A stretch of DNA of 64,000 nucleotides from a virus. The DNA is taken from IMG/VR virus record IMGVR_UViG_3300030101_002520, positions 32,001 through 96,000 of that record. One strand, written 5' to 3'. The position numbers and the translations under genes are program-made. Positions 6,720 through 43,916 of this stretch are shown in pieces. The stretch's first letter is position 1. Each line of letters begins with the position of its first letter. The notes under the pieces were generated by a model. The model worked only from the letters and a program-made list of their open reading frames with translations. It made no database searches and had not been told where the DNA came from.

Positions 6720-6763
6720 TTTAATTAGTTTTAAAACTTAAAAAATTTTAGTATTTTTGATAT

Positions 6764-10132: not shown

Positions 10133-10142
10133 AAAATAAACC

Positions 10143-13100: not shown

Positions 13101-16100
13101 GCTGAAGCTATGAATAAAGTTTGGAATGATCAAAGAAAGAAGTTTAAAGTATACGGTAAATTAAAAAATTGGGTTGATAATCAGGAAAGAGCTAAAATAA
13201 TTTCTGATCTAGCAAAGGTAGGAATTTTTGCAGAGTCAGAACAAGCTAAGAATTTTATTGAGACTGGTCAACAACCAACAGAGTTTTTTAGTGAAGAAAG
13301 TAGACTAACAGCTATAACAGCTGAAGAAAATCCTAATGCTTGGAAAACTTTAACAAACATACTGAAAGGGTATCAAAAACAAAAAGAAGCTGAAGCAAGA
13401 GCTGCTAAAGATAAAGCTGGACAAGATCTTGAGATAAATAAAGAAGAGTTTGACAAAGATTCTGATCTTAGTGCTGGTGATGAAATAAATTCAGTTCCAG
13501 AAGTAGAGGAAGAAAGGGGAGCTCAGATATCATCAAACATACAACCAAGAATATACACACTAAAGGATTATCAACAGTTTATAGATCAAGATCCTGATAC
13601 ACAAGCTATACTTAATAAAAAGTATCAAGAGTATGAATATGCTTGGAATAAATTGGGTATAAAAAAATTATCAGGTAAAGAAGGTCAGATCTTAACTAAA
13701 AGTGAATGGGTTAATTCAAAAGAGGGCGGTGGTAAAATTGTTAAAGCAAGACACAGATTGTTTAGAACATACGCAATGCAATCACCTGGTATGAAGAACA
13801 AAACAACATTTGAAGAATATTTAACTAAGAATCAAGATCAACAATTTCTTATAAATGTTGTACAAGGATATGGTCTTAGAGTGGAAGATATACTTGTAGA
13901 TACAGTTATTAATGAGAATATAGCAGTTGAACAAGGTTTAGGTAGCAGAGATACAATAGTAGATACAGATAATGATTACTCTAAAAATAAAATTAAGATA
14001 GTTAGAAGAAGAAGATTTGCAACAGAAGAAGGTGTTGCAAGTGATTTCTTTATGGTTCTAACTCTTAATAATGAAAATACAGTTGATAAGTATGCAGGTC
14101 TTCCTAATGCAAATACTAATTTATCTACAACATATAAAACAGAAGCAGAAGCTATAGCTGCAGCTGATTGGTTAAGTATGAATATACCAGCTGCAAGTAA
14201 TTTTGATTTTACAGTAGAAGGTAAAGCTGAAGATGGATTTACAAGTGGAGAGATTGTTGTTAAAGATGGAAGAAGATATAGTGTAGAAAGTAAAGAGGAA
14301 GATAATAGCATGCTTGTAAAAGATTTAGAATCAGGTCAAGAAGAAACTATAGACGCAGGCAAGTTTGCATCAGAAGGTTGGACAAGATCTAAAGATGAAA
14401 AAATTCAAATAGCTGATATAAAAACTTCAACTAAACTATTTGTTGATAGGGCTTTACAAATACTTCCATTTGATCCAAATGCAGACTCTTATAAAACAAT
14501 GAATGATCCTCAGAAGGAAAAAATATTAAGAGCTCAAGCAAGAAAAGATTTTGAAAAAACATTACAACAATTAACTATTGATGAAATAAACAAATTAAAA
14601 TTTAGTATTGTAAAAGGTGAAGACTTTGAAAAGGTTATAACAAACACAGCTCCGTCTGACAGAGATGTATTTCCAGCTAGTGTTAATTATGATGAGAATA
14701 AACAAATAAGGGTTGGTGCTGCTAAGTATAGAGTTGTAATATACAAAGGAGATGAACCTTTTGCATTATTAGCTAGTCCTTATACAGCTACTATGGTAGA
14801 TTCTAAAGGAGAGAAAATAGATCCTTTAACAATTACACAAAAGCAAGCTGAGACATTATTTATAGGTGCAATAGCTGATCCAAGTGCATATAAAAAGATT
14901 AGAGCTAATTATGCTGCTGCATATGAAATAGAAAAGATATTTGAAGATGCATTAAAAAATTCTAAAGGTGATCAAGCTTTTATGTCTTTTAAAGACCTAC
15001 AAAAGAACAATATAGATATGCAGTTTACACCTGGTTTAATTCTATATAAGTCAGAAGAAGTGGTTAATGGCAAACAAATTAATAATGAATCAAGTATTGA
15101 AGAGTTAGCAAACAATGGCTTTACAGTTGCTGAGGGTGTTGGTACTGACGGTAATCCTTTATTCTTAATAGAAGATAACCAGATTATAGATAGAAAAGAA
15201 GGGGTAAGAGAAGAAGCATCTATTATAACAAATATATCTGTAAAAGATTCAAACACTCTTGATAAACTAAGAGCTGATATTAATGCATCTATGAGGCGTC
15301 AAGGTTTTGATACAAAGACAAAGCTAGGAAGATATGTTGGTTATGTTTATTCACCTGGTCTAGGTGAGTATACTGCCTTTGAATTAAAAGCAAAACCAAA
15401 ATCATTAGAGCAAGTAAATACATTATTTACAGAGTATCTTAATAGAATGGAAGATACTGTTAAAAATAATCTAGATAAAGGTAATGTAAAAGATGAATTG
15501 TATAATAGAGCTTTTAATACAGAAAAAGAACAAGATAATTTTATAGTAGGAAAAGGTAATCAACAATTTTCTATTAGTGTAACAAGTAGAGGTGATCTTA
15601 AATTTAGATATTATAATAGTGGTGTAAGAGGTGTTGGTATAAATATATTTTTAAAAGTAAAAGATGTAAAGAATCTTTTACAGTCAGAAGCTGGTGTTAC
15701 ATCTCTTTTAAAAAATATACAGAAAAAAGTAAACAATAAAATTAAAGCAGATAAGAAGCTGAATGATCTACAAAATCTTTTAATAAATCTTAATGCAGAA
15801 AACTTTAAAGACAGTTTACCAAAAGATATTAACTCTAACAGTAATAAGTATACCATAATAAATACTAAAATGGATGCTGTTATTGGTCCTAATGTAAGAT
15901 CTAAAATTTATGGTAATATAGTATTTAATGATACTTCCGCTATAAATAGTGCAATACAAACAGCATTAGATATACAAAGAGAAGCACCAGTAAAGACTTC
16001 AACTGTTACTGAAAAACCATTATCTAATGTTAGTTTAGAAGATACTGACTATTTTAAAAAACAATCAAAAGAGAAATTTGCAAATATAGATGAGTCTATA

Positions 16101-19100
16101 TTAAAAGAGATAGCTAATAAAATTGTTAAGGATGGTAAAGAAAGTTTAACGGAAAGAGAGAAATTAGCATTACAGAACACACCTAATAGTAGAAGGGTTA
16201 GTGAGTTTATGCTTGAGATTACTAGCAGGCAAGCTAGTTATAAAGCTCAAGAAGAAGCTGAGAACTCAGAAGAACAAAAAGAAGTTGACAGTGAATTAAA
16301 ATTACAAGACCAGTTAAGGGTTTTAAAGAAAGAAAAGTATGATAAATATTATCAAGAGAGATCTGTTGAAACTATAGATGGTCAACGTAATAGTAAGTAT
16401 ATAAAGAAAGAAGGAGAAAGAAGAAGGGCAGCTTTATCAGATGTAAGTCTAGATCCTGAGATACAAGATTTAACAAATAGAATAAATTCTGCACTTAAAG
16501 TAATTGATACAGAGTTTGATGGTAGAGACATAGAAGACATAAATAAATTTGTTACTTGGTTAAAAGCTAATCTACCTGAAGATATAGTAACTATAAAAGA
16601 TATAAATGATCTTTCTGAAAGATTAAAAAACAATGGTACTACTGTAGGAGCTTTTATTATGAGATTAAAAACACTACGTGGTAAGTCTAAAACTGTTGGG
16701 GAGATCTATACATCTAAAGAATCTCCATTTAGATATCATGAAGCATTCCATGCTGCGTTTAGATTATTATTAACTGAAGATCAAATTATAGACTTTTTAA
16801 ATGTAGCAAAGAAAGCTAAAAAAGCAGAACTTAAAAAAGAAGGTAAGAGTTTAGATCAAGCTTTAAAAGAACTTGCATTGCTAAGTCCTACATATTCTGC
16901 TATGAATAAAAAGGAATTAGAAGATACCTTATATGAAGAGTATTTAGCTGATGAGTTTGAAAAGTTTAAACAAAGCCCAACTAGTACAAAGATAGCTCCT
17001 AAAGTAAAAAGTTTCTTTACTAAGTTATTAGAAATGATAACAAAGATTTTTGAAAATGCATTTAAAGTATTTTCAGGATCTGCTTTAGTTGAGCAATCTA
17101 CAGATACTCAACTAAATAAATTATTCCAAGATATTGATTCTGGTAAATTTAAATCTTCTAAAACACAAGAGAACAGGTTTACAGATGCAGTTGCAGAAAC
17201 TAGTGGTGGTGTTTCTAACCCAGTATATGCTATAGTAGCAAAACAAACTGCAATTATACCAGTCACTGTAAGAAGAGCTGGAGAACTTATTACATTAAAT
17301 AGAAAAGTTGTAATACCATTTCCTGCAGAGCAAGTAGATAGTCTTGTAAAAAGAATTGCTGCAACATATACTCAACTTAAAAGTAGATTTGTACCTGCTA
17401 GAGAGACTCCAGCTTTTAGTAAATCTAAAGGTATAAGACAAGCTACTGATATGATTATTCAAATGTATGATCCAGGTAATTCACAATATGATCAGATTAG
17501 CAGTGATATAGAAAAGTTATTTGAATTAGAAGATATATATAATGCTTTAAATAATCCTGATAATAAAAAAGCATTGGCTAATGGTGTAAGAGATTATATT
17601 AATATTGTTGAAGAAGTAGACAATGTTTTAGAAGATAATATGGACGTGGCTAAAAACGAAGAGAGAGATGCTCCATATCAAATTGATGATAAGAGGAATC
17701 AGATGGCTGGTTTTTCTAATCTAAATGAAATGATAAGAATGTTTATTCTTACTACTACAGTTGATGTTCAAGATGATAGATTTGGAAATACTTTTGTAAA
17801 TCCTGATGCAGCTGAAGCAGATAGAATACCATTACAGGAGAGTGTTAACTATATTGAGGTGTTTAATGGATTGTTAAAAGCACTTTCTGGTACTGCTAAT
17901 CCTGCTACATCTCTAAGAAAGATGTCTATATTTGCTGAATCAAATAGAGAGACACAGGCTGTAGTTAACAGATTCTTTATGGAATTTTTTGGAAACAATG
18001 GACCTAAATTAATAAAAGACTTTGTAGAAGGTAGGTCTGAAATACCTACACCACAAGGCGCAAAAGGTGCAGAGTTTTTTCAAAAAACAATGAATGCTTT
18101 TCATCAGTTTAGAGTTGACTATATTGTAGGTCTTAAAGATAAGAAAACTGGTAATACAAGTTTAATTGCTGCAAACAAGAATGATGATACACATTGGCAG
18201 TTACAAAGATGGAGCAATTCATTTGATAACAAAGATTTAAGAAAAGGTACAGTTAGTTATAATACAATAATAGATGACTTAAAGAACTTAGAAACTCTTA
18301 TGACTTCAGGAGAAGTTTTAAGTGATTTAGAAGTTAGAGCAAAAGGGGAAAGTGTTGCGGAAGCTCTTAATAGACATTTAGGTATTGATATTTCACCTAA
18401 GTTTGTAGAGTACAGTTTATTATCTAGTATGGGTTCTTCTACACCTTATCAAAATAATCTATTAAGTTTATTTGAAGAGAGACCTATAACTATAAGTGAT
18501 GAGAATCAAAACTCTGATTTAACAGAAATTATAAAATCTTTACAGAGAGGCGAACAACTATATAATGAAACTAATAAAGAAGATTCTATAGAATCTGAAA
18601 AAGAAACATCAACAAATTATTCAGAGCAAACCTCTACTAATGCTCAGGGTGTATTTTATAGATTACAGAAATGGGCTATAGCTAATGCTGCTTTTGATGA
18701 AAAGGTTGGATCTACTGTAATGTTAGATCCAAAAGGTAATTATATATATACACATCAAACTCCTACATATCATTTAGAGATAGCACAAAAACTTAATTCT
18801 CAAAATGGTATTAATGATTTAATAAGTGAAAGACCTGACTTAGTTGCAAACACACTATTGCAAGATCCTAAGTTCTTAGCTCTTTCAGATGCACGTAAGT
18901 TAAGTATTATTAGAAGTTTAGGTACAAAAACAACAACCTTTACTGTTACAAATGATGGTCAAAAAATAGAGAATAAATCTTTAGATACTAATGATGATGC
19001 AAAAACATATGGTGACTATACTCCAGCTGAATTTTTAGCTGATAGGATAAATCTATATCTTCTTAATTTTAATGATCTAAATGGTAAGGTTGCACAAGAA

Positions 19101-22100
19101 AGTTTTTTTGAAGAAGATAAAGAATCACCTACAGTATTTACATACTCTCCTGTTTTACTTAGGGTAATGAGTGATTCTAATATGGGTGATATGCAAAACA
19201 TGCCTGTAATTAAAGTTCAAAGTAAAAAGAATACATTTGCTAAAGAGTATTTACAACAATGGGCAAATCTAATAAAGGATGATTATACAATTATACAAAC
19301 TAATAGTAAAGAACTAAGAGATGTTACATTATTTCCTGTAAGGAATGTACATAAAGGGTATAATGATATAGAAGCTTCTGATATTGATTTTACAAATGGT
19401 AATTTAAATCCTAATCTTGCAGATCCTAATAAAGCTAGAGGTTTTAAAATGGGTTTAGGTACGGCAGATGTATTAACAATAAGAAAGGTTGGAGAGCAAA
19501 AAGAGTTTGATGAAAGTTTAAAGTTGCATTTAGAAAAAGTAGCAAGAAGTTTTAAACCTGATGGCAGTCAGTATACTATAGAAGAGGCATATAAATCTTT
19601 TGTTAGTACTAAAACTGATGATTCAAGTGAAAGCGCACCAAAAAGAAATGCAGGAAGATTTATACTAGATGCTTTAGAAGCACAGTATAAAAGGTTTGAA
19701 AGTGAGCTAGAGGATTTAGGAGCTGATACTTTAGTTGATAATAGAATAAAAAAAGGTTTAGCAAAAACAGGAAATACAGAATTTAAAAATAATGCAAGAT
19801 TATCTCAAGCATTATTATTTTTAGGTACAGATGAAAGATCAAATCTAAGACAAATATATTTTAATAACTGGTTGCAAACTACACGTATTAATGATGTATA
19901 TCTACCTAATCAAAGCATGTCACTAAAAGATGCAGTAGATGCTATTAAGAGAGCTAAGATGCAAAATGCTGGTGGAGCAAATACAGAATCATATATATCT
20001 GCGCCTGAATTAGGTATAAATAAACCACTTCAAGAATTACATGTACTTATTGGTACTGATCCTTTAGTTAAGAAAAAGTATGATGTAGATGGTGAAGATC
20101 AAAAACCTGGAGAGCAAACAGATGGTCAAGGTTACATGACTACTAAAACTTTTAGAGCAACATGGTTTGGTTTAGGTAAGCTTACTGAGAATCAGGCAGA
20201 TATGTTAAATAAAATAGAAAATAATCAACCAATTACAGAAGAAGAATTTTTTGGTGCTGTAGAAGAAACAGAAGCAGGTTTAAGTAGTTTAGGTTATAAG
20301 GATTATAAATCTCAAATAAACTCTAAGAAGTATGTTTATGGAGACGGTAGTTTGTACTTTAAACTATCTTATACAGTTTTAACACCTGCTTTGGATAGTT
20401 ATGCTGATGGTACACCATTAGAAAGTAGGAGAAGGTTGTATAATTTAAGAACTACTTTGGAAGCCAAAGAAAAAAGGGATGATGTGTTTATGATGTATAT
20501 ACCAGAGTCTGCTTCTAAAATGCGTAAGACAGATATACTTGATAGAGAGACAAGTGAATTATTATTTGATCAAGGTCTTACTATTGGTGAAAGACTTGAA
20601 GGTTCACAAGTTATAACAGATATGGGTAAAAAGCTTGAAGATGCTATAGAAATTGTTCCTGCTAAATATATGAGACTACAACAAATAACTCCATCAAATA
20701 AAATGGAAGTTGTTGATCCTAGACAAATACAAAATCTTATTCTTAATGAGCAGAATGATGATCAAGATATTACTTATATGGGTGAATCCTTGAAAGTAAA
20801 AGATCTTAAAAAAATGTATCAATGGTCTATATCTAATAGAAAACAAATTAACTACTTTAATAGACATAGTTTAGTTTTTGATTTACAACATGGATTACAA
20901 TACTTACAAGAAGCTATTGATGAGAATAAAGTAACACCAGATCTAGATGCATTTGTTGATTATGCACAAAACTCCTTACAAGCATCACAAGCATCTACAT
21001 TATTATTAGAATACTTTTCTAAAGCTAAGAATGGAGAGTCTAGGTATGAATTAAATAATCCGGTTACAATACAAAAGTTTACGGAACTTATTATGAGTTT
21101 CTTTAGTAAGGGTGTAATTGCAGATAGGCAACCTGGTAAGGCTGTTGTGCTTGTATCTGATTATGGAATGGATGTGTATAAAAGGGTTGATGCAGTTGAT
21201 AATAATGGTACTCCTATAGCATGGACAGTGATAACAACAGAGGGTTGGAAACAATCATCTGCTCAACAAAGAGGTGCGTTAGTAGTAGATCCTACAGTAA
21301 ATCCAAATGGAGATGTAATAGGTTTATCTGAAGATCAAGTTTATGTTGATAGGCTAAGACATGATGTAGTTGAATATAAAAGAGATACTAATGGAAAGCT
21401 TATTAGAGAGGATGGGGAGTTAGTTTCTACTGGAGAAGTGTATACAGAGTTTATGTTACCTCCACACTTTAGAGAAGAGATGCAACTAAATCCTGGTGAT
21501 CCTATACCAGATGTAATAGCTAAACAGTTTGCAGTGCGTATACCATCTCAAGATAAACACTCTGCTATTAATTTAAAATTAGTTGATCACCTTCCTGTAT
21601 TCTATGGGTCATCCGGTGTATTTGCAAGAGAGTTATTAGAGATAACAGGATCTGACTTTGATATTGATAAATTTTATGTACATCATAAAGAGTTTTATGA
21701 AAATGAAAATGGTGAACTTGTAGAATATGGTAAAGGCAGAACTGCAGAAGAAAGGTATCAAGAATATCTAATGGCATCAGAGAAGGATATGTCAAAATCA
21801 GGAACAAATATTTTCTATGCATACAAGAAGTGGAGAGAAAGAAAAAGAACAGCTGATAAAGAAAAATACACAGATGTACAAGAAAAAATAAATAAAGAGT
21901 TTAATGAGTTTATACTTACTAGTGAAACAGGATTATTACTTAGTGGTCAAGATCCTAAAACATTAAAAGAAGCTTTTGCAAAAGAAAGAGGATATGATTA
22001 TGATTCAAAAGCTGATGAGTTTTATTTATCTCCTAACGAAGAAATTGGTGTTGAAGAACCAAATAAACAAGCAGCACTATTAGGATCTTTAAAGATTTTA

Positions 22101-25082
22101 AATCTACCGGTTACTATAGAGCAGTATGAACAGTTTAGAGAAGAGAATAAGTTTGTAACAGAAAGTGGTGCTACACTATTTAGAGAACCTTATGCACAAG
22201 CATATAGTAATAATATATTAGATTTTAAAATGTTATTGTTGGGTAATGACTCTATGTCAAAAGCTCAAGGTGGACGTTTACATGCTATAAAGAATGAGCC
22301 TGCTGTAGATAAACCTTTTGTAAATATATGGAATAGTTGGAAAGATAAACTACCAAACTACTATGAAAACAATAGAGTAGACTTAAACTTTAGTGTAAAT
22401 AATATTAATGGTCAAACTAAATATTATAAAGATAGTAAAGAAGGTGCAAGAAATATTGGAGCTGTAGTTCAACCTAATACATACTTAGGATGGCATAAAA
22501 TATTTAAAACAAAACTAAGAGATGGTCAACCAAATGAGAGTGGTATATATATAGGTCCTCCAACACTTAATGGACATACTTATAAAGACTATAATATAAA
22601 CTACTTTATTGATCCTAGTAATGGAAAACAGCTAAAGGATGGTGAAAGAATTCAATATGCTATGTCTGCATTAGTTTCTATTATGGTTGATAATGGAAAA
22701 AATCCATATGCAGCAAAGTTAGGTTTGAATAAACAACTTGTTGTAATGGTTGCAAATGCAATTGCATTAGGTATTAATCTTGAGACAGCATTATTACTTG
22801 TTAATCAACCTATTGTTCAGGATGCATTTAAACAATCTAATATAACAGGTACTAATGCAATCTCAACTCTTCGGTCAGCTTACAATGGATTTATAAAAGG
22901 TGAAAAACCATTAAATACTGTATCTATGGGTACAGAGGTTACAGATGAATTTTTGGAAGATTTAATACGTAAGGCTAAAAGACCTTTAGATAAAGGAACA
23001 AAAAGAAGTGTAGAGAAAGAAATGGCAGGTCTTAGAGAGTTTTTAAATCTTAGTTATATTACTCAAGCAAATAATAACCTAGGAGCTATAGCTGCATTAG
23101 CAGAAAGTATGGGTAGAGATCTAGATGCTGTTGCTAATACTAATAAAAATTTAAATGATTTAGGTTTGTTTTTAGACAAAGAAGATTATTTAGATGCTAG
23201 AGTAATGGGTAATCCAATACCTTTTGAGTATAATTTTGTTAAAGGAATAACAAATATAAATAGTATACCTGGTGTTAACACTAACCTATTTAAACACTTT
23301 ACAGATCTTAGTGTACCGTATTTATTAACTCCAGCAACTGAAGTTTTCATTGGATTAGAAAACTTTTTGACTAGAGGTCTTAAAGGTATGACTCCTAAAA
23401 GAACAGCTGATGCTACATCTAAAATTAGAAAAGATTTATTAAGTTATTTGACAATAAAATCTTATATGCATAATCTTAATCTATTAGGTGAGTCTGGTCA
23501 AGAATCATTAGCTTCATTGAATAACGCATTGATATATAATGAAATGGAGGGCTCTATAAGGATTGACAAAGAAATTGAAAAAGTAAGAGACTTTTTAAAA
23601 GCCACTGATCAAAAGAATGAGTTTATTAATTTATTTATTAGAAATGATAGAACTGGAACTAAAAAGAATAAGACTGGTATTAATAGAGTAAGGACGCAAA
23701 ATCTTGTTAAACTTAGTAACAATAAAGCTAATAGAATTCAAACATCCCTTATATCATTATTAAAAGATAAAACAACTAGAGCTGCTGTAACACACTTGAT
23801 ACACTATGAAATGGTTAAGAATGGATTTCAACAAAAAGCAGGATCATTTTTACAAGTTATAGCACCTGCATTACCAGATATTCAAATGTATTTAGGAGAA
23901 GCTAAAAGAGTTAAAGATCTTTTGTCAACTAAGTTTAAAAATTTAGAAGAGGTAGATGAAGGATTTAAAAATACATTTGGTTTAACACTTGATGAAACAT
24001 TACAAGATTTAAGTCAATGGTTTAGATCATCTAAAGATTCTTATTATATTCCACGAATTGGAAAGGGTGTACAATTTAATACATCAAAAGGAGTGAGATC
24101 ACCAATGTATATAAAAGATAATAAATTTATTGTAGATTACCATCAAGGTACAACTGAGATTACAAAGTATAAATCTAAAGATCCAAATGATAAAAGAATA
24201 AAAATACCAAAACTAGAAATAGATATTGAAAAGAAGTCATATGAAATATTAACAGGAGCAGGTTTTAGACCAAGTGGGTTAGGGTTTATATTTCCACAAG
24301 TTACATCAGTTTCCCAAACTTTAGCAGATGGCACCTCAACAGTAAAATATTATTATTTAAATAGATTATTTTCTCCATATACAAAAGGTAAGACAAATAC
24401 TAATTTATATGCTGCTGAGAAAGTTTCTAATGCTTTAGTTGGTACAACAGCTGAATATATAGAGTTTGATTTATTAGGTAGTAAAGATCAGTGGAAAATG
24501 GGTTTCATGTTTAATATTGCAAAGATTAATGGTAAAACTCAGTTACAACCCACACTTAAAGAGATAGCACAAAAAGAAAGTATGAATCAAACTGATGGAG
24601 CACCAATTCCTCCAAGTGATTATGCAGATCAGTCTTATACTATTCCAGCTAATGTTGAACCTAGGAATACTGTAAATGATACCAACATTAATAGTATAGA
24701 AGCAAACAATGATAAAATAGAATTTAAAAAAGATGATAACGTTGTTGGCTCAACTGAAAATCAAGATCCTCAAACTATTATAAATGCTAATGTTATTGTG
24801 GATAAAAAGAAGGCAGCTCCAGCATCTGCATTTAGTAAAGCTGAAGGAGTGGGTGCAAAGTTTTCTAAAGATAAGTTAGGGCCACAAACAAAAAAAGATA
24901 ATAATTATGTTGATGTAATTAGAGAGTGGTTTCAATCAACACCTGTTGGAGAACTTAATAAAGCTGCAGAAGCTAATTTGCTTACTGGTGCTAGATTAAA
25001 AGACTTTGTAACATATTATGAAAAGAATAGAAATGTTACTAACTTAGATGACTTCATGTATAGACTTAAAAACTGTAAATAA
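10143..25082 (+). CDS. Giant virion-packaged double-psi beta-barrel RNA polymerase polyprotein with zincin-like domain
   Basis: Catalytic GSDFDIDK (~21648-21671), RIPSQDKHS (~21537), TDGQGY and VDNGKNP motifs typical of crAss-like RNAPs (phi14:2 gp66 family). HEAFH...EEYLADEF zincin motif at ~16737. Hydrophobic Gly/Ala-rich helices in the N-terminal ~620 aa. Confidence 0.9.
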   Translation: MAENPNIGNNKFINQNYTPPVDINTGSVPQISSQEHQDITDALRESTIQFDRSSEIDPMSLKFIDQQSKIINEQETLNPSRFTSPYPGNATPNRNPFAYNTGQNDLSTQQGRRDYFGSILERANGISDTRPHGGAWQNPIIYGKRQVNADRYLSHPSFDDLGFHPYRDNETFYNQNSTWYDDLGRTSSAFVQMFKPAFTSGWRALGDFISGDGLSQDYIGAEAMQDAMRIASSTRGGITGFTNDLYLNSAYTFGILGSIFAEEVALGLGTVATKGMSSSIAAQRTAGNFKRLFDAADAMKTGARNIGNFSYNVMRDLGAVDKAKDFYNYAKGNMYGDEVGRFISNFFAPETTRALQTMNSTKNTAKNVSNLSKLNTTFGAFYRDIRQFNIAWAESKMEGGLREIETLEEAYLKALQENGGNPLTEEQYNLIHSKSKSAGLGTALLNFPIIYLSNKLVFDGALRGFKPLARQLDNAKSGLGRQIMRNTKDGVVNSGKKAYVNVGSGLKRMYREGVVNGLKAAGVAGLRYSTRNFAEGFQELAQELVSASVGDYYTGLFDEVLSDSMNANAAELESRVKNAEASMAQAISSGLNNEAVGFKTFMSGFLMGGLVQPFQTVMFEYVPNTYTYVTDRKKYDAYAKKKEDYINESTKTLTEMFDDPRNLFKLTNLNTLTQKQLNKFMLLSSYNNDIMAFKDSKDAAAFHHVLTMLRVGKAEDFKAHLNGILQMNDADLQNAFKDTEASPAEIRKRFTGLIDKVDTMRDRFNRFDDKYINPYNPDNFKQGSRPWAQEIIRQSAFEHAKMMFMFTNDTYERSVVRMESILSNLSVNPVIDKMAANDITALTSQKGMLAEINMLKDETSVAPARNASVELKEQYKNKQEKLKIFQEFYDTFYAKDNYKILSRTKDKVKYGKLKVSGKNKLKKVFIKLLDHLSKTTGGRIQDNDAINTAFEMIIDHEYLAGRASDYYQAARILDDPSILNDLADRSAEAMNKVWNDQRKKFKVYGKLKNWVDNQERAKIISDLAKVGIFAESEQAKNFIETGQQPTEFFSEESRLTAITAEENPNAWKTLTNILKGYQKQKEAEARAAKDKAGQDLEINKEEFDKDSDLSAGDEINSVPEVEEERGAQISSNIQPRIYTLKDYQQFIDQDPDTQAILNKKYQEYEYAWNKLGIKKLSGKEGQILTKSEWVNSKEGGGKIVKARHRLFRTYAMQSPGMKNKTTFEEYLTKNQDQQFLINVVQGYGLRVEDILVDTVINENIAVEQGLGSRDTIVDTDNDYSKNKIKIVRRRRFATEEGVASDFFMVLTLNNENTVDKYAGLPNANTNLSTTYKTEAEAIAAADWLSMNIPAASNFDFTVEGKAEDGFTSGEIVVKDGRRYSVESKEEDNSMLVKDLESGQEETIDAGKFASEGWTRSKDEKIQIADIKTSTKLFVDRALQILPFDPNADSYKTMNDPQKEKILRAQARKDFEKTLQQLTIDEINKLKFSIVKGEDFEKVITNTAPSDRDVFPASVNYDENKQIRVGAAKYRVVIYKGDEPFALLASPYTATMVDSKGEKIDPLTITQKQAETLFIGAIADPSAYKKIRANYAAAYEIEKIFEDALKNSKGDQAFMSFKDLQKNNIDMQFTPGLILYKSEEVVNGKQINNESSIEELANNGFTVAEGVGTDGNPLFLIEDNQIIDRKEGVREEASIITNISVKDSNTLDKLRADINASMRRQGFDTKTKLGRYVGYVYSPGLGEYTAFELKAKPKSLEQVNTLFTEYLNRMEDTVKNNLDKGNVKDELYNRAFNTEKEQDNFIVGKGNQQFSISVTSRGDLKFRYYNSGVRGVGINIFLKVKDVKNLLQSEAGVTSLLKNIQKKVNNKIKADKKLNDLQNLLINLNAENFKDSLPKDINSNSNKYTIINTKMDAVIGPNVRSKIYGNIVFNDTSAINSAIQTALDIQREAPVKTSTVTEKPLSNVSLEDTDYFKKQSKEKFANIDESILKEIANKIVKDGKESLTEREKLALQNTPNSRRVSEFMLEITSRQASYKAQEEAENSEEQKEVDSELKLQDQLRVLKKEKYDKYYQERSVETIDGQRNSKYIKKEGERRRAALSDVSLDPEIQDLTNRINSALKVIDTEFDGRDIEDINKFVTWLKANLPEDIVTIKDINDLSERLKNNGTTVGAFIMRLKTLRGKSKTVGEIYTSKESPFRYHEAFHAAFRLLLTEDQIIDFLNVAKKAKKAELKKEGKSLDQALKELALLSPTYSAMNKKELEDTLYEEYLADEFEKFKQSPTSTKIAPKVKSFFTKLLEMITKIFENAFKVFSGSALVEQSTDTQLNKLFQDIDSGKFKSSKTQENRFTDAVAETSGGVSNPVYAIVAKQTAIIPVTVRRAGELITLNRKVVIPFPAEQVDSLVKRIAATYTQLKSRFVPARETPAFSKSKGIRQATDMIIQMYDPGNSQYDQISSDIEKLFELEDIYNALNNPDNKKALANGVRDYINIVEEVDNVLEDNMDVAKNEERDAPYQIDDKRNQMAGFSNLNEMIRMFILTTTVDVQDDRFGNTFVNPDAAEADRIPLQESVNYIEVFNGLLKALSGTANPATSLRKMSIFAESNRETQAVVNRFFMEFFGNNGPKLIKDFVEGRSEIPTPQGAKGAEFFQKTMNAFHQFRVDYIVGLKDKKTGNTSLIAANKNDDTHWQLQRWSNSFDNKDLRKGTVSYNTIIDDLKNLETLMTSGEVLSDLEVRAKGESVAEALNRHLGIDISPKFVEYSLLSSMGSSTPYQNNLLSLFEERPITISDENQNSDLTEIIKSLQRGEQLYNETNKEDSIESEKETSTNYSEQTSTNAQGVFYRLQKWAIANAAFDEKVGSTVMLDPKGNYIYTHQTPTYHLEIAQKLNSQNGINDLISERPDLVANTLLQDPKFLALSDARKLSIIRSLGTKTTTFTVTNDGQKIENKSLDTNDDAKTYGDYTPAEFLADRINLYLLNFNDLNGKVAQESFFEEDKESPTVFTYSPVLLRVMSDSNMGDMQNMPVIKVQSKKNTFAKEYLQQWANLIKDDYTIIQTNSKELRDVTLFPVRNVHKGYNDIEASDIDFTNGNLNPNLADPNKARGFKMGLGTADVLTIRKVGEQKEFDESLKLHLEKVARSFKPDGSQYTIEEAYKSFVSTKTDDSSESAPKRNAGRFILDALEAQYKRFESELEDLGADTLVDNRIKKGLAKTGNTEFKNNARLSQALLFLGTDERSNLRQIYFNNWLQTTRINDVYLPNQSMSLKDAVDAIKRAKMQNAGGANTESYISAPELGINKPLQELHVLIGTDPLVKKKYDVDGEDQKPGEQTDGQGYMTTKTFRATWFGLGKLTENQADMLNKIENNQPITEEEFFGAVEETEAGLSSLGYKDYKSQINSKKYVYGDGSLYFKLSYTVLTPALDSYADGTPLESRRRLYNLRTTLEAKEKRDDVFMMYIPESASKMRKTDILDRETSELLFDQGLTIGERLEGSQVITDMGKKLEDAIEIVPAKYMRLQQITPSNKMEVVDPRQIQNLILNEQNDDQDITYMGESLKVKDLKKMYQWSISNRKQINYFNRHSLVFDLQHGLQYLQEAIDENKVTPDLDAFVDYAQNSLQASQASTLLLEYFSKAKNGESRYELNNPVTIQKFTELIMSFFSKGVIADRQPGKAVVLVSDYGMDVYKRVDAVDNNGTPIAWTVITTEGWKQSSAQQRGALVVDPTVNPNGDVIGLSEDQVYVDRLRHDVVEYKRDTNGKLIREDGELVSTGEVYTEFMLPPHFREEMQLNPGDPIPDVIAKQFAVRIPSQDKHSAINLKLVDHLPVFYGSSGVFARELLEITGSDFDIDKFYVHHKEFYENENGELVEYGKGRTAEERYQEYLMASEKDMSKSGTNIFYAYKKWRERKRTADKEKYTDVQEKINKEFNEFILTSETGLLLSGQDPKTLKEAFAKERGYDYDSKADEFYLSPNEEIGVEEPNKQAALLGSLKILNLPVTIEQYEQFREENKFVTESGATLFREPYAQAYSNNILDFKMLLLGNDSMSKAQGGRLHAIKNEPAVDKPFVNIWNSWKDKLPNYYENNRVDLNFSVNNINGQTKYYKDSKEGARNIGAVVQPNTYLGWHKIFKTKLRDGQPNESGIYIGPPTLNGHTYKDYNINYFIDPSNGKQLKDGERIQYAMSALVSIMVDNGKNPYAAKLGLNKQLVVMVANAIALGINLETALLLVNQPIVQDAFKQSNITGTNAISTLRSAYNGFIKGEKPLNTVSMGTEVTDEFLEDLIRKAKRPLDKGTKRSVEKEMAGLREFLNLSYITQANNNLGAIAALAESMGRDLDAVANTNKNLNDLGLFLDKEDYLDARVMGNPIPFEYNFVKGITNINSIPGVNTNLFKHFTDLSVPYLLTPATEVFIGLENFLTRGLKGMTPKRTADATSKIRKDLLSYLTIKSYMHNLNLLGESGQESLASLNNALIYNEMEGSIRIDKEIEKVRDFLKATDQKNEFINLFIRNDRTGTKKNKTGINRVRTQNLVKLSNNKANRIQTSLISLLKDKTTRAAVTHLIHYEMVKNGFQQKAGSFLQVIAPALPDIQMYLGEAKRVKDLLSTKFKNLEEVDEGFKNTFGLTLDETLQDLSQWFRSSKDSYYIPRIGKGVQFNTSKGVRSPMYIKDNKFIVDYHQGTTEITKYKSKDPNDKRIKIPKLEIDIEKKSYEILTGAGFRPSGLGFIFPQVTSVSQTLADGTSTVKYYYLNRLFSPYTKGKTNTNLYAAEKVSNALVGTTAEYIEFDLLGSKDQWKMGFMFNIAKINGKTQLQPTLKEIAQKESMNQTDGAPIPPSDYADQSYTIPANVEPRNTVNDTNINSIEANNDKIEFKKDDNVVGSTENQDPQTIINANVIVDKKKAAPASAFSKAEGVGAKFSKDKLGPQTKKDNNYVDVIREWFQSTPVGELNKAAEANLLTGARLKDFVTYYEKNRNVTNLDDFMYRLKNCK

Positions 25083-28000
25083 TGGCAACTTGTTTTAATA
25101 GAAATTTACCTGCATATCAAACACTTTTAGAGAAGTATGATTCTCCTATGTTTGTAGATGGAGTTATTAATGGATGGCAAAAAGTAAATAGATCTGAACT
25201 TATGCCTACTGTACTTGAAGCAGAAGATTTTTTAAAAGATCAAAAAGAAGTTGGTGTTTTAGATAAACAAAATTTAAAACAATCTATTCTTACAAACTTG
25301 GGTGTAAAAGGTAAAGGGTTAATTAGCAGATTTGGTGAATCATATTATATAAATAATACTAATAAAGAAGTAAGAGCAATTAAAGGTGATGTACAAACAT
25401 TAGAAAGAAATAAGAATAGTGTAGAAAGATTATTAGATTGGTGGCAAGTAACACCAGAGGCTGTAACAATAACAAAGACAGACAATTCTTATAGGTTAGA
25501 TATAAATGCTAATCTACTAAATATGCAAGATGTTATAACAGAAACGTCAGATGTAACACATTTGCAAGATATACTTCAACATCTAACAAGATTATTTCCT
25601 GATGTACAAATTCAAGTGATGAGTGAAACTGATGCAAAAAGAATGTATAATTCATTACCTCAATTTACATCAGAGTTTCAAAAGCCCATAGATTTTAAAG
25701 ATATAAAAAGTTTTTATGTAGATGGTCAAGCCATATTAGTTGAAGGTAGAGTAACATCAGAAACAGCAATAGAAGAAGTATTACATCCATTTGTTAATGC
25801 TTTATATGCAGATAAATCAGAGTTGTTTAGAAGATTAAAAACAGAATCAGAACGTTCTTTTCCTAAACTAGCTCAAGAGATAGCTGGTGCATATACAAAG
25901 ACTAAAGGTTTTGATAATATAGATAGAGATAAAGAGTTGGTTACACAAGCAATGGCTAGACACTTTAAGAGAGAGTATGAGCAAAATCCTACAGAAAGTT
26001 TTAGATCTAAGATTAGAGAGTTTATGAGATGGCTGATGGATGTATTTAGAGATCTTAGTAAGTGGGTTGTAGGTAAAGATTTAGTATTAGCACCGGGTAT
26101 GATAGACAATGCTAATAACTTAACAAGTCTTTCTAAAATTTTGAATACAGGTGATTTAAAATTTGGTCTTGATAGAGCTATAAGACAAGATAGGAAAGTT
26201 AGATTTAGTTTAACACCTAAATTTCAAAAGATATACAATAAAGTAAAAGGTAAAGCCACTTCACAAAAACAAATTACTAGGCTTGATGATCTTTATAATG
26301 TAAGCATTAATAGTCAAAAGCCTATAGATGACTTTACTGTTTCTATGTCAAAAAAGAAAAATCATCCTCTAGTAATATTAAATAAAAAAACACACAAATA
26401 CATTAGTGTAGAAAACATTAATGACCCCTTTACAAGTGTAACTACAAAGATAGGAGGTTTTAGTTCTAAAAGCTATTCTATTAAAAAGGGTGATACTATA
26501 GCAAGCATTGCTAAAAGTTTAGGAACAACTATAAAAAAGATTAAAGAGTTAAATCCAATAGGTGATAATTTAAATACGCTTACTAAAGCAAATGGTCAAC
26601 CTATAAAACAATTATATGTGCCACAAGAAGATTTTCAAATCAATATGGATATTGGTAATGATTTTGATTCTATAGTAAGTGCTATTGTATTAGATGAAGG
26701 TATAGACAGTGTAGACTTAAAAGTTGTTAGTAAAGAAGTTGCAGAAGATTTTTATAAAAAGATGAAGAAAGATCTTGCAGTATTAACAAGAAATGGTGGA
26801 ATACTAATACCACAAGTTGTAGTATCAGATAAGCTTAATCAAATAGCTGGTACTATAGATCTTTTATTTATGGATGAGAATGGAGCTTTAGAGATTATAG
26901 ATATTAAAACAAGCAAGGATAGTTTAAATGCTCTTGTCAATGGTAAATTAAAATATGAAGAAACTTATTTTCCTGTTACCTATGGTAGTATTTTTTATGA
27001 TCCTGCTAAGTCTCATGCAGATCAGCAAAAGTTTACTAAAGAGCAAATGCAAGCATTGCAGGTAAATTCTTATGCTCAGATATTAAGAAATCAAGACTAT
27101 GATATTGATTCTACTTTTACCTATCATGTGCATACACCCACAACAGGGAAAGGTATTAATCAAAAATATACACAGAAATTTGTTATTGAGGGTATTAGAA
27201 CACAATCAGAGACTGCTGATGTGCTTATTGGTGATCCAGGTAATAATAACTTTGCTTCTGAAATGATGGTAAAAGATTTTTCAGATCCTACAGCAAATGA
27301 TAAATTATTTACTTTAGATAAAAAAACAGGAGAGAATGAGATAGAGGTAGATGAGTCTGAGATAGATGCAATAGCAGAGAATGTAACTTCTAAGATGATG
27401 TCAACAGAATCTGTACTTGAACAAATAACAGATTTTAGAGTTGCAATGAGTACAAGAAAAGAAAACTATCAAAGAGTAAAAAATCAAATTGCTTTTTTTA
27501 AAGATGGTAAAGATGTTGTTCAAGAGATTGATAGAACGTTAGCAATTATAGATGCTGGTGTTGAAGATGGCAATGTAATTCCATTATTTGAAGAGATTGT
27601 AAAACAATCAATAAAAGAATTAGATGACTTTATTGAATATGTTAACAACCCAGATAGCTATTTACTGGATGATAAATATATATCTAAAGTGTTAAACTAT
27701 TCAAAAATGGTGAGCACATATGAAAGTTTATCAGAAGTAGAAAAAGCAAAAGGTTTAACAAAGGCACAACTACAATTACTAGAAGAGTTAAGGGGAAAAA
27801 TATATACAATTAACGGTAAAAGAGATGGTTTAGGAAATATAATAGAGGGTAAAGAAGGTTTGATTAATACTGCTATAGATAATTTTGCTAAACAATTTAT
27901 AAAAGATAATTCTAAAAGAGATTTTACACAAGAAGATTTAGAGGACATATTAAGGTGGGGTTCAGATATGGGTATGATAGAGTATCAAACAGGCACACTT

Positions 28001-30898
28001 GCCACATCAAGTGATACTATTCTAGCTTTAATGGATAAAATATTTAAAAGAAAAAGACAAGAAATATTAGATAGAGTAGAAGAAAGAAATTCAGAAGTAA
28101 GAAAGCTAGCTTCTAAAATAGAAAAACTATCTCCGGGTAGAAAAGCTAATTTTGATTTTATGATTGTGCTTGGTGATGATGGTCAACCAACTGGAACTTA
28201 TGTTAGAAAAATAGGTGACCAGTATTATAAAATGAAAAGACAAAGAACTGACAAACTTAAAAATGCTGATGGTGATCCTTTAGAATATGTAATTAAAGAT
28301 AAACTTACACCTGAAGAAATTGCTTATAATAAAAAGTTATATAAAGATAGACAGGAGTATAGAGATTTTATGAAAGCAGAAAGAGTTATAGATAATAAAT
28401 TAGAGGAAGGGAAGTATCATAAGTATAGTGATGTGTTTAAAAAAGAAAGATTGAAGTTTATGTTTTTTGATGGTCAACAATGGCAAAAAAGAGACAGAGT
28501 ACCATTAAATGAATATCTAGAGTTTAGAACTAAGTATTATAATCCATCTAGTTTTTTTAGACCAGAGTTTGATAAAGATGGATTTTCAGGTTATTTAAAA
28601 GAAAAGAAACAGGGATGGTTTGTTAAGTCTGAATATGTTGAAATTAAAGATGAGAGTTCAGAAGATTCAGGATCAGTAAATCTTTTAGACTCAAAGTATC
28701 AAAAGATTATGAATCCTACAGATGCATTGGGTAGAGCACAAAAAGAGTTCTATGAAATGTATGTTAAGTATTTTGAAGAAGATCTTCTTACAAAACTTCC
28801 TATGCGTGTTGTGCAACAAATGCACGGTAGATTACCATTAATTAAAGATACACAATATCAACAACTTAAAAATGCTCCTAATATGATGTCTGAGTTATGG
28901 GCTAAAGTTAAAGGTGTTCCGCGTGGTATATATGATTTCTTTGCAACTAAAACTCAAAAGTCAAGAGTAGTTTTAACTGATGAGTATGGTAATTTTACAA
29001 GCACACTTCCAATATTCTATACAGGTAGTATTCAAACTCAGCAAGATCTTCAAGAAATATCTGATAAGATAAGAGCTAAAGAGGATGAAATAATTAGAGC
29101 TAATGGTGATACAAGAACAACACAAACTAAAATTGATAAATTAAAACAGCAGCTTGAAGACCTAAAGGGTAAAAAAAGAAGAATGCAAAATAGACCTGAA
29201 GCAAGAGAATTAAGTAGAGATCTTGCTGATAGTTTGATAAGATTTAGTGCAATGGCTGAAAACTATGAGATTATGTCAGGTGTAGAAGATACTCTTAGTT
29301 CATTAATAAAAGTATTGGAAAGAAGAACCTATGATCCAGCAACTGGTGATGATCTTAAAACTTTTAAAGATGGTGTAATGCAAAAGGCTGGTTTGAAAGG
29401 AAACTCAGGTTTAGAAACACCGTTAATTGTTAGGAGAGCAAAGAAGTGGATGAAGATGGTTTTTTATGATGATGATCAGAAAACAGAGAATGTATTTGAA
29501 AAAATATCTAGAGGTTTAATTAGTTATACATCCTTAACATATGTTGGTCTTAACCCTTGGGGTAATTTGAATAACTATGCTATAGGTAGATTAAATAATT
29601 TAGTAGAGACAGCTGGTGGTAGATGGTTTGATAGAAAAGCTGCTGTAAGAGCAACAAAAGAATTTAATCAAAGAATGATACCAGACTTTATGAAAAGAAT
29701 GGGTGGTAGAACTTTTCTTAATGATGCTATAGGTGTAAGTCCAAGTCAATATGAAAAGTATAAACCAGGTAGTAAGTATGAGGCTCTTGTAGAATTATTT
29801 AGAATGATGGATGATAAAGCAGATATACGAGAGCAAAATAAAACTGCTGGTAAAGAAAGTCCATTAAGAAAAGCTATGAGTTGGGGTTATATGTTGCAAG
29901 ATGCTGCTGAGTATAATGTACAAACCAAGCTAGGTATGGCAATACTAATGTCTACTAAAATATTTAAGAGTGCTGACCCAGATGGAAGTAAAAGTGCTAT
30001 ATCTTTATTTGATGCTTATGAGTACAACCAAGAAACAGGCAAACTATCTCTACAAGAAGGGTATGATACAGTTATAGATTTTCAAACAGGCAAGCAACAA
30101 AAGATGTCTGATAAAGCAAGATATGATATTAGACAATACATACGTGAGGTTAACATACATGTACATGGTAACTATGCCTATGAGGATAGAATGGTATTAC
30201 AGTCTAGCGCATTAGGACAACTAGCTGCACAGTTTCATAAATGGATTGCGCCAGCTGTTAAGGCAAGATATAGATCAGAATATTTTGATGAAAATCTAGG
30301 TTGGATAGAAGGTAGGTATAGAACCTTTTGGAATTTTATGTCTTATACGGCTAAGAATATGACAGATATTAGAACAGCAGCTAAAGACTGGAAAGAGTTG
30401 CAGGGAGAGAAAGCAGAAATGAAAGTTAAAAATCTTCATAGAGTTGCAGGTGAGTTAATGTTATTTATGATGACAGTAATGTTAAGACAGATGTTTGCTG
30501 CAATGTGGGATGATACAGATGAAGATAAAAAAGGAACAATGAAAAGATTTCAAAATGCTTTTATGTATCAAATGGATAGACAAAGAAGAGAACTTATTCA
30601 GTTTGTAAATCCTGTAGATGCATTTATGTTAATGAAGTCTCCAATTAGTTCTGTAAGAATGATGAAAGAGATGTCTGAAGCATTAATGACTGGTGTACAA
30701 ACACCTTTTGTTATTGGATCATATAAACTACGTGGTGAAGGAGATGTAGAATTAGATAAAAGAATATATTATCAAAGAGGTGCTAAGAAAGGAGATCTTA
30801 AACTTTACAAAGAATTTTATGACGCATTCCCAGGTCTCTACGCATTAAACAGATGGATGTCATATGACAATGTAAAAAACTTCTGGGTAGGAGAATAA
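25082..30898 (+). CDS. Large ejection protein: degenerate zincin-like domain, LysM, PD-(D/E)xK nuclease domain, long helical C-terminus
   Basis: AIEEVLHPF...ELVTQA (HExxH-like with H to E). YSIKKGDTIASIAKSLGTTIKKIKELNP...LYVP (LysM). IAGTIDLL...IIDIKTS...QVNSY (PD-(D/E)xK). TAATG coupling to the RNAP gene. Confidence 0.75.
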   Translation: MATCFNRNLPAYQTLLEKYDSPMFVDGVINGWQKVNRSELMPTVLEAEDFLKDQKEVGVLDKQNLKQSILTNLGVKGKGLISRFGESYYINNTNKEVRAIKGDVQTLERNKNSVERLLDWWQVTPEAVTITKTDNSYRLDINANLLNMQDVITETSDVTHLQDILQHLTRLFPDVQIQVMSETDAKRMYNSLPQFTSEFQKPIDFKDIKSFYVDGQAILVEGRVTSETAIEEVLHPFVNALYADKSELFRRLKTESERSFPKLAQEIAGAYTKTKGFDNIDRDKELVTQAMARHFKREYEQNPTESFRSKIREFMRWLMDVFRDLSKWVVGKDLVLAPGMIDNANNLTSLSKILNTGDLKFGLDRAIRQDRKVRFSLTPKFQKIYNKVKGKATSQKQITRLDDLYNVSINSQKPIDDFTVSMSKKKNHPLVILNKKTHKYISVENINDPFTSVTTKIGGFSSKSYSIKKGDTIASIAKSLGTTIKKIKELNPIGDNLNTLTKANGQPIKQLYVPQEDFQINMDIGNDFDSIVSAIVLDEGIDSVDLKVVSKEVAEDFYKKMKKDLAVLTRNGGILIPQVVVSDKLNQIAGTIDLLFMDENGALEIIDIKTSKDSLNALVNGKLKYEETYFPVTYGSIFYDPAKSHADQQKFTKEQMQALQVNSYAQILRNQDYDIDSTFTYHVHTPTTGKGINQKYTQKFVIEGIRTQSETADVLIGDPGNNNFASEMMVKDFSDPTANDKLFTLDKKTGENEIEVDESEIDAIAENVTSKMMSTESVLEQITDFRVAMSTRKENYQRVKNQIAFFKDGKDVVQEIDRTLAIIDAGVEDGNVIPLFEEIVKQSIKELDDFIEYVNNPDSYLLDDKYISKVLNYSKMVSTYESLSEVEKAKGLTKAQLQLLEELRGKIYTINGKRDGLGNIIEGKEGLINTAIDNFAKQFIKDNSKRDFTQEDLEDILRWGSDMGMIEYQTGTLATSSDTILALMDKIFKRKRQEILDRVEERNSEVRKLASKIEKLSPGRKANFDFMIVLGDDGQPTGTYVRKIGDQYYKMKRQRTDKLKNADGDPLEYVIKDKLTPEEIAYNKKLYKDRQEYRDFMKAERVIDNKLEEGKYHKYSDVFKKERLKFMFFDGQQWQKRDRVPLNEYLEFRTKYYNPSSFFRPEFDKDGFSGYLKEKKQGWFVKSEYVEIKDESSEDSGSVNLLDSKYQKIMNPTDALGRAQKEFYEMYVKYFEEDLLTKLPMRVVQQMHGRLPLIKDTQYQQLKNAPNMMSELWAKVKGVPRGIYDFFATKTQKSRVVLTDEYGNFTSTLPIFYTGSIQTQQDLQEISDKIRAKEDEIIRANGDTRTTQTKIDKLKQQLEDLKGKKRRMQNRPEARELSRDLADSLIRFSAMAENYEIMSGVEDTLSSLIKVLERRTYDPATGDDLKTFKDGVMQKAGLKGNSGLETPLIVRRAKKWMKMVFYDDDQKTENVFEKISRGLISYTSLTYVGLNPWGNLNNYAIGRLNNLVETAGGRWFDRKAAVRATKEFNQRMIPDFMKRMGGRTFLNDAIGVSPSQYEKYKPGSKYEALVELFRMMDDKADIREQNKTAGKESPLRKAMSWGYMLQDAAEYNVQTKLGMAILMSTKIFKSADPDGSKSAISLFDAYEYNQETGKLSLQEGYDTVIDFQTGKQQKMSDKARYDIRQYIREVNIHVHGNYAYEDRMVLQSSALGQLAAQFHKWIAPAVKARYRSEYFDENLGWIEGRYRTFWNFMSYTAKNMTDIRTAAKDWKELQGEKAEMKVKNLHRVAGELMLFMMTVMLRQMFAAMWDDTDEDKKGTMKRFQNAFMYQMDRQRRELIQFVNPVDAFMLMKSPISSVRMMKEMSEALMTGVQTPFVIGSYKLRGEGDVELDKRIYYQRGAKKGDLKLYKEFYDAFPGLYALNRWMSYDNVKNFWVGE

Positions 30899-43193: not shown

Positions 43194-43916
43194 ATGCCCG
43201 CAAATATGAAAAAATCTGGAATGTCATACAAGAAAGGAGGTTCCAAAAAAATGTACGGAGGTACAATGAAAAAAAAGAAAATGTATGGAGGAACCATGAA
43301 AAAGAAAATGTATGGTGGCTCCAAAAAGAAAATGATGAAGAAAGGTGGAATGATGAAAGCTAATAAAGGTTTAGAGAAATTAGCTGAAGCAAATCCTGAG
43401 CTTACGTATACAAAAAAAATGTATGGTGGTATGGCTAATCCAAACAAAGATGAAATGATGATGTATGGTGGTGCTATGTATAAAAAGATGATGAAGATGG
43501 CAGGTGGTCCAATGATGAATGAAGAAGGAATGAAAGTACCAGGTATGATGAAAGCTGGTGGTGGATTAAGAAAAATGCCAGGTGGTGGTTACATGAGAGA
43601 TATGGATCTACCTAAAGCACAGTCTGGACTTTTTACAAAAGGTCTTAAAGGAATAGCAAAAAAATTGGGAAAAGGTAAAATAACAAATCCAAGCACAATA
43701 GATAATGTGAATGTGAAGAAAACTCTTTTTCAAGGTGTAAATAAGAAAGGTGAACAGGTTTTTAAATTAGGAACAGATGGTAATGTATTTACAAAAAAAG
43801 ATAATGCAATGGCTCCTTTTTTACAGAATAAGGCAAAGATCTTAGAAATATTAAGGGGAAACAATCCTACAAAAAATAAAGTTTATAAAAAAGGAACTTT
43901 ATATGGTCCTAAATAA
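43194..43916 (+). CDS. Met/Lys/Gly-rich low-complexity protein with tandem KMYGG repeats
   Basis: Ten xxGG motifs (five MYGG), then LPKAQSG and a basic C-domain. Confidence 0.7.
   Translation: MPANMKKSGMSYKKGGSKKMYGGTMKKKKMYGGTMKKKMYGGSKKKMMKKGGMMKANKGLEKLAEANPELTYTKKMYGGMANPNKDEMMMYGGAMYKKMMKMAGGPMMNEEGMKVPGMMKAGGGLRKMPGGGYMRDMDLPKAQSGLFTKGLKGIAKKLGKGKITNPSTIDNVNVKKTLFQGVNKKGEQVFKLGTDGNVFTKKDNAMAPFLQNKAKILEILRGNNPTKNKVYKKGTLYGPK

Follow-up and report, generated by a model that had tools for sequence, protein, structure and literature searches.

We examined a 64,000-nt stretch of the virus record IMGVR_UViG_3300030101_002520 (hereafter the window), which spans bases 32001-96000 of a 115,139-bp record rated 98% complete. 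By its sequence, the source is a 115-kb marine crAss-like phage, and its portal protein matches those of Leptolyngbya phage Lbo-JY46 (34%), Cellulophaga phages phi17:2 and phi4:1, and gut crassviruses. Six consecutive open reading frames (ORFs) lie on the + strand at the start of the window (84-1169, 1226-4309, 4312-6699, 6764-10132, 10143-25082, and 25082-30898). The last two encode a 4979-amino-acid (aa) giant, which includes a virion RNA polymerase (RNAP) module, and its 1938-aa neighbor. The whole block contains two cysteine codons, and these face each other across the junction between the giant and its neighbor.

3-1169, + strand: 3′ end, 388 aa within the window, of the first gene of the block, which encodes a 910-aa protein (genome 30437-33169); no cysteine
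1226-4309, + strand: 1027-aa cysteine-free protein, a candidate cargo or ejection protein; no family match
4312-6699, + strand: 795-aa cysteine-free protein, a candidate cargo or ejection protein
6764-10132, + strand: 1122-aa cysteine-free protein, a candidate cargo or ejection protein
10143-25082, + strand: 4979-aa giant, in which a gp47-like zincin module (A) is fused collinearly to a gp50-like virion RNA polymerase (B)
25074-25076, + strand: TGT, Cys4978 of 4979, the sole cysteine and penultimate residue of the giant, whose end reads ..RLKNCK
25082-30898, + strand: 1938-aa gp49-like "RNAP-associated" protein (module C)
25091-25093, + strand: TGT, Cys4 of 1938, the sole cysteine of this protein, which starts MATCFN (motif M-A-x-C-x-N)

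The original prediction held that the six proteins lack cysteine except at the penultimate residue of the giant and at residue 4 of its neighbor, and our count over the window ORFs returned exactly these two. It also gave the first protein as 361 aa. That length came from an internal TTG start, and the actual product is the 910-aa cysteine-free protein, cut by the window edge. The block therefore amounts to 10,249 aa in the window and to 10,771 aa with its first gene complete, with two cysteines in either case. Cysteine made up 0.02% of the block as compared to 1.75% of the remaining window ORFs, a frequency at which ∼180 cysteines would be expected in the block. Off-frame, this DNA is rich in TGT and TGC triplets (the giant gene has 303 in frame +2 by itself), so base composition does not explain the depletion, which operates at the level of the protein. 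Histidine (0.64% vs. 2.09%) and tryptophan (0.68% vs. 1.67%) were also depleted ∼3-fold relative to the remaining window ORFs. The giant gene and the 1938-aa gene overlap in the sequence TAATG, with the stop codon at 25080-25082 and the start codon at 25082-25084. Assuming uniform placement of two cysteines, we estimated a chance of ∼2 × 10⁻⁶ that both would fall within 5 residues of one junction on its facing sides. Retention at abutting termini is thus as improbable by chance as had been proposed, and conservation in relatives settles this independently.

We followed the pair in homologs of both proteins. Among 76 homologs of the 1938-aa protein, reaching down to ∼30% identity, ∼70 had a single cysteine at residue 3-5 (or at residue 8 after a longer called start), and both C4 and N6 were invariant in an alignment of 39 of them. 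All nine full-length giants (4996-5487 aa) carried one cysteine each, 2-3 residues from the end. At 67 IMG/VR loci that span the junction, equivalent to 16 clusters at 50% identity, the upstream ORFs held 68 cysteines in 197,397 aa and the downstream proteins 69 in 127,892 aa. Nearly all of these 137 cysteines in 325,289 aa were terminal, lying 1-4 residues from the C-terminal end upstream and at residue 3-6 downstream. The last 200 aa of the giant have a mean column identity of 19%, and the cysteine is the sole column conserved at 90% or above. Between the two genes the distance went from -1 (a 1-nt overlap) up to +134 nt, and the cysteine codon was TGT in some cases and TGC in others. This variation in spacing and codon places the constraint on the proteins rather than on the DNA, and it rules out a nucleotide-level cause such as a translational-coupling motif or a hairpin at TAATG.

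The giant ORF was broken in three loci (L026, L048, and L077), in each case inside conserved domains, and in L077 within the SKGV..PG..ALVSD block. We rejected these breaks as module boundaries or gene fissions: they are frameshifts inside conserved domains, and since none of them has a terminal cysteine they look like indel errors rather than true fissions. A tblastn search of the junction flanks against an isolated-phage collection returned almost nothing. In the closest IMG/VR relative (L001, 93% aa identity), the gp49-like gene shifts frame after approximately residue 92 and lacks a short stretch (L001:5601-5950), which is either an assembly error or a broken gene.

The giant had been called an RNAP. 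The polymerase module is indeed present; the protein as a whole, however, is a fusion of a zincin-type module and an RNAP module. By tblastn, the giant matched crAss genes annotated as "putative RNA polymerase", and by hhalign it matched crAss001 gp50 with a probability of 99% (E 3.6e-18, 673 columns). The HEAFH region aligned to the C-terminal region of crAss001 gp47 (hhalign probability 95.5%, E 1.4e-8). On the giant, gp47 ends at approximately residue 2387 and gp50 begins at approximately residue 2363, showing that the giant is a collinear A + B fusion, with the zincin HExxH domain ∼170 residues ahead of the A|B junction. The sequence SGADFDIDK was kept in 36 of the 38 listed homologous loci. 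The principal features of the two proteins are as follows.

16737-16751, + strand: HEAFH (HExxH zincin motif), residues 2199-2203 of the giant, invariant in homologs (Y2198, H2199, E2200, A2201, and H2203)
17229-17303, + strand: approximate A/B fusion point from hhalign, residues ∼2363-2387 of the giant; no cysteine there
21654-21668, + strand: DFDID catalytic motif of the two-barrel RNAP, residues 3838-3842 of the giant, aligned to DFDVD of gp50 (phi14:2 gp66 has DFDID at 1361)
24894-25079, + strand: small helical domain predicted at the C terminus of the giant, last ∼60 aa, ending ..K-N-C-K
25082-26071, + strand: N-terminal 330-aa alpha/beta domain predicted in the 1938-aa protein
26474-26554, + strand: LysM peptidoglycan-binding motif, residues 465-491 of the 1938-aa protein (PF01476, E 5.3e-7)
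29201-30655, + strand: residues 1374-1858 of the 1938-aa protein, homologous to crAss001 gp49 (E 7e-26) and phi14:2 g065

The stretch around the LysM motif was also weakly endolysin-like (phrog_291/2742, E ∼1e-5). Searches of PHROGs and Pfam with the giant and the four smaller block proteins gave no matches, the 910-aa protein had no PHROG match, and no transmembrane-like segment was seen when we looked for one in the 1027-aa protein (1226-4309). Neither phmmer nor a 26-sequence profile of the DFDID region found anything significant among PDB sequences, and 6VR4 was not reached.

The zincin, DFDxD polymerase, and gp49-like modules of the window are homologous to crAss001 gp47, gp50, and gp49 and to phi14:2 gp67, gp66, and gp65; a crAss-like portal is a further shared feature. 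The window phage is distantly related to these two, with ∼25% identity over the matched regions. Drobysheva et al. (preprint 10.1101/2020.03.07.982082) showed phi14:2 gp66 to be an RNAP that is packaged in the virion and injected with the DNA, and noted that virions contain gp65, gp66, and gp67 alike and that some phages have them fused. Packaging and injection have been followed by mass spectrometry and transcription assays for phi14:2 and crAss001 only (preprint 10.1101/2020.03.07.982082; PMC10172136). The block proteins of the window are probably injected as well.

The modules of crAss001 and phi14:2 obey the same terminal-cysteine rule as the window. The window phage differs from both in that A and B are fused in one 4979-aa protein, and it therefore has one cysteine pair instead of two. 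We observed three architectures among the phages compared.

A, B, and C separate (crAss001, DAC15, cr128_1, IAS virus, and phi14:2): cysteine at the C-terminal end of A, at both ends of B, and at the N-terminal end of C
A + B fused, C separate (window phage, cr118_1, and cr4_1): a single pair, at the B|C junction
A separate, B + C fused (p-crAssphage, cr110_1, and cr11_1; Intestiviridae): a single pair, at A|B, and no C-terminal cysteine on the fused protein

Co-conservation of the terminal pair and its loss on gene fusion, proposed as a check alongside the original observation, were thus both borne out: the pair accompanies split RNAP modules and is missing from fused ones. Across 11 reference phages, a cysteine lay within 10 residues of the end at 33 of 34 facing ends as compared to 0 of 21 free ends (Fisher p = 2.6e-14, uncorrected for phylogeny). 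The three phi14:2 proteins contain four cysteines in 5,398 aa, every one of them terminal, and a cysteine pair flanks the e|f junction of Lbo-JY46. The crAss001 genes for gp47 and gp50 are on opposite strands, indicating that the cysteines track the module junction and not gene adjacency.

Several observations touch on individual members of this comparison. The annotation of IAS virus divides the RNAP between two overlapping ORFs, gp055 ("molybdenum carrier") and gp056 (L089:3698-6211 and 6201-12680), and gp055 has an N-terminal Cys5, as expected for module B. For cr110_1 gp40, the true start probably lies 14 codons downstream of the annotated one, in view of the MSC that follows. The fused B + C proteins p-crAssphage gp44, cr110_1 gp40, and cr11_1 gp66 (L086, L095, and L096) each have one internal cysteine ∼790-850 residues after DFDVD. 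Lying near the expected B|C junction, it may be a relic of the pair; blastp mapping of the B|C fusion point in Intestiviridae did not place the junction. Lbo-JY46 encodes a 674-aa cysteine-poor protein (L088:2299-4323) with a lone Cys5 (MKKKC) and no obvious partner with a C-terminal cysteine. It is preceded by a 495-aa protein lacking a C-terminal cysteine and, before that, by a cysteine-rich 1654-aa protein. Proteins annotated in their records as thioredoxin-like lie a few kb from the RNAP module in p-crAssphage (L086:22863-23141) and cr128_1 (L093:2548-2793), where they may simply serve ribonucleotide reductase.

A facing pair of this kind has been resolved by cryo-electron microscopy in the cyanopodophage A4, in which the C-terminal helix of gp27 is docked in gp26 and a disulfide joins gp27 Cys1715 to gp26 Cys5 (PNAS 2025, PMC12002296). 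As in the window, the A-4L genes are adjacent and encode large ejection proteins in which a sole cysteine lies close to the C-terminal end of one and close to the start of the next: Cys1715 of 1717 aa, 3 residues from the end, and Cys5 of 1114 aa are each protein's only cysteine. The giant of the window also ends in a helix followed by its cysteine. Unlike the window phage, A4/A-4L belongs to the Saffermanviridae, has a 42-kb genome, and involves no virion RNA polymerase in the link, which is single and not one of a series of two or more. What has been demonstrated for the A4 bond is that it stabilizes the packed pre-ejectosome; the paper treats it as a local stabilizer and draws neither a rule of cysteines at termini only nor a connection to gene fission and fusion (PMC12002296).

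Cysteine avoidance in itself has been described in N4-like phages (Schitoviridae), where the ejection proteins (N4 gp50/51/52 and DEV gp71/72/73) are depleted of cysteine and the rationale given is the disulfide-forming periplasm (PMC11445570). The earlier suggestion that cysteine avoidance suits passage through the periplasm therefore has a published counterpart. Like the window, Schitoviridae have a giant virion RNAP and co-ejected proteins that are essentially cysteine-free, and we counted no cysteine in the 4,294 aa of N4 gp50, gp51, and gp52. The N4 virion RNAP has no relation to the two-barrel crAss enzyme, being a single-subunit polymerase of the T7 type, and it is a single chain without any cysteine, hence the lack of terminal pairs. 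The T7 internal core proteins gp14, gp15, and gp16 leave the virion through the tail, as the window proteins probably do; no cysteine occurs in gp15 or in the 1302 residues covered of gp16 (1318 in full, counted from the N terminus). In contrast to the window, no facing terminal pair was seen in T7, whose lone cysteine is residue 2 of gp14 (gene 14, L099:1229-1819).

We modeled the two ends with AlphaFold2 (AF2). The N-terminal 330 aa of the 1938-aa protein gave an alpha/beta domain with a mean predicted local distance difference test (pLDDT) score of 79.6, in which Cys4 lies in a coil (residues 1-9) before the helix at residues 10-19. The last ∼60 aa of the giant formed the small helical domain (pLDDT 90-96) after a disordered linker, and Cys4978 follows immediately after the last helix. 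In these models, both cysteines are at the exposed edge of folded domains. The terminal cysteines are not catalytic. A Foldseek search of the N-terminal model against the PDB gave no match at E ≤ 0.001, and we give no weight to its weak zincin-like rows. When the two end domains were predicted as a complex, the score was 0.40 against 0.00 for the best control, which lends weak support to an interaction; the runs agree in at least 25% of contacts, and the partner has a pLDDT of at least 57. Of 80 solved complexes, 58 attained this mark, as did 2 of 110 mismatched pairs. Within the range up to 0.60, however, it was attained by just 7 of the 80 solved complexes and by both passing mismatches.

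The cysteine pattern is real and strongly selected. We think it probable that Cys4978 and Cys4 form a head-to-tail intermolecular disulfide in the virion, equivalent to the peptide bond at the module junctions of other lineages. The virion RNAP module is here encoded as two proteins, the AB giant and the LysM-bearing, gp49-like C. These two and the four adjoining proteins are kept cysteine-free; they would be packed in the capsid, exit via the tail, and cross the oxidizing periplasm at least partly unfolded. The likely reason for the avoidance is that stray thiols would cross-link there. Each retained cysteine occupies a short, flexible tip, in the giant just past its final helix and in the neighbor within the coil that leads into its first helix, and one disulfide between them in the assembled virion would create a head-to-tail thread of ∼6,900 residues. 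The disulfide would thereby act as a post-translational stand-in for the peptide bond. We infer not only the bond between the cysteines and its formation in the virion but also its role, that is, keeping the stoichiometry or order of the proteins during packing and ejection, and its opening by reductants in the host cytoplasm.

The intermolecular link proposed in the original prediction was upheld in part: both cysteines are kept, they are kept together, and they occur specifically at termini that face each other, and A4 offers a cryo-electron microscopy precedent with the same signature (PMC12002296). A number of points tell against the bond. Complex prediction of the two end domains was weak and yielded no contacts. 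The A4 precedent is an analogy, since homology of the window proteins to A4 gp27 and gp26 was undetectable (nothing by blastp; hhalign probabilities of 0.1% and 0.3%). Since the cytoplasm of the host is a reducing environment, bond formation would need to take place inside the capsid or to follow lysis, and the habitat of gut crAss phages is anoxic. Gut phages also have 1-9 extra internal cysteines per module protein (L085-L096), as compared to zero in the marine and freshwater phages examined (window, L087, and L088), a difference that may go back to habitat, anoxic in the one case and oxic in the other. Among the 76 homologs of the 1938-aa protein, two (P0065 and P0069) lack cysteine and have an N terminus unlike that of the family. 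A single facing end has no cysteine, namely the N terminus of gp056 in IAS virus, where the ORFs at the junction overlap and bases are ambiguous. Finally, the comparative counts are phylogenetically non-independent.

We weighed four other explanations. The two cysteines might not be bonded to each other: they might join a third partner (a portal, capsid-interior, or tail protein), form homotypic dimers (giant-giant or neighbor-neighbor), or serve as non-covalent docking residues. Such partners are conceivable, given that other virion proteins of this genome are cysteine-rich, that crAss001 virions have disulfides in the tail and portal vertex (PMC10172136), and that the lone Cys5 of the extra 674-aa protein in Lbo-JY46 has no obvious partner. 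However, neither a third partner nor a homodimer predicts that both cysteines are lost upon module fusion or that they are restricted to facing ends, with none at the 21 free N-terminal ends of A and C-terminal ends of C, and the bond in the A4 structure is a hetero-bond. We consider this explanation unlikely. A metal ion (Zn, Fe, or Cu) or another group bridging the two thiolates would preserve the head-to-tail topology and would explain the pairing and its loss on fusion equally well, and the invariant Asn two residues after the N-terminal cysteine (C-x-N) could help to coordinate a metal. With one cysteine per partner and depleted histidine, though, few ligands are at hand, and the sole solved example of the signature, A4, is a plain disulfide, which makes a bridge of this kind quite improbable.

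The pair might instead mark processing, either as recognition or cleavage sites of the zincin protease or as remnants of polyprotein cleavage. The position of the HExxH domain shortly ahead of the A|B junction fits with this, and Drobysheva et al. propose cleavage of fused polyproteins. Yet cleavage is unnecessary for separate genes, the fused junction in the window has no cysteine, and the residues flanking the cysteines are poorly conserved; we find this explanation very hard to sustain. Lastly, termini are in general under weaker constraint, and cysteine avoidance could have been relaxed there, or the arrangement could be accidental. Such an origin is effectively refuted, as the pair has been kept through 16 clusters at 50% identity and across families, the free termini are all without cysteine, and the cysteine is the sole conserved column in a fast-evolving tail. 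Four further readings, considered from general knowledge, were rejected: a lipoprotein (no signal peptide or lipobox), a CaaX motif (the distance from cysteine to the end varies over 1-9 residues), an intein (no intein-sized sequence beside the cysteine), and an Ntn-nucleophile (recombinant gp66 is active with disordered termini).

Beyond the head-to-tail disulfide at this one junction, we raise a wider and more doubtful possibility. In Crassvirales and their marine relatives, the RNAP module might be a redox-cleavable pseudo-polyprotein in which a disulfide and a peptide bond are interchangeable at A|B and B|C. A thread of ∼6,000-7,000 residues would be packed and injected as a unit, and host cytoplasmic reductants would release, and possibly activate, the zincin, polymerase, and gp49-like modules. 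Both the crAss001 atlas and a 2026 N4 paper raise the question of how more than 1 MDa of cargo, among it the polymerase with which infection begins, is packed, ordered, and injected by crAss-like phages. According to the atlas, the cargo must partly unfold and its exit order is unknown (Bayfield et al., PMC10172136). From a rule that places cysteines at facing termini only, one can predict the physical partners among the cargo proteins and the order in which they are linked, and the rule explains why the module can be freely split and fused in evolution. If true, it would extend the single disulfide of A4 to a general principle for injected protein chains. The rule can also aid annotation in uncultured phages, by finding cargo genes and by telling true gene boundaries from frameshift artifacts.

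General cysteine suppression and one structurally proven example of the disulfide, in A4, are already known. Terminal cysteines are mentioned neither in the crAss001 atlas (PMC10172136) nor in the phi14:2 gp66 paper (preprint 10.1101/2020.03.07.982082), and our literature search on Crassvirales, disulfides, and cargo returned the atlas alone, with no paper describing a terminal-cysteine rule for Crassvirales. What appears to be unpublished is the rule as it holds across the order in the crAss RNAP module, together with its link to the splitting and fusing of the genes.

The block is flanked by genes of the opposite composition. Directly upstream (genome 21498-30437) is a cysteine-rich 2979-aa protein with 79 cysteines (2.65%), and downstream, at 37253-40234 of the window (+ strand), is a 993-aa protein with 53 cysteines (5.3%). 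These flanking structural genes probably encode external tail or fiber proteins stabilized by disulfides, in sharp contrast to the cargo block. Further downstream, a 240-aa ORF (43194-43916, + strand) has an odd composition of its own, with 30 methionines (12.5%) and no cysteine, tryptophan, or histidine.

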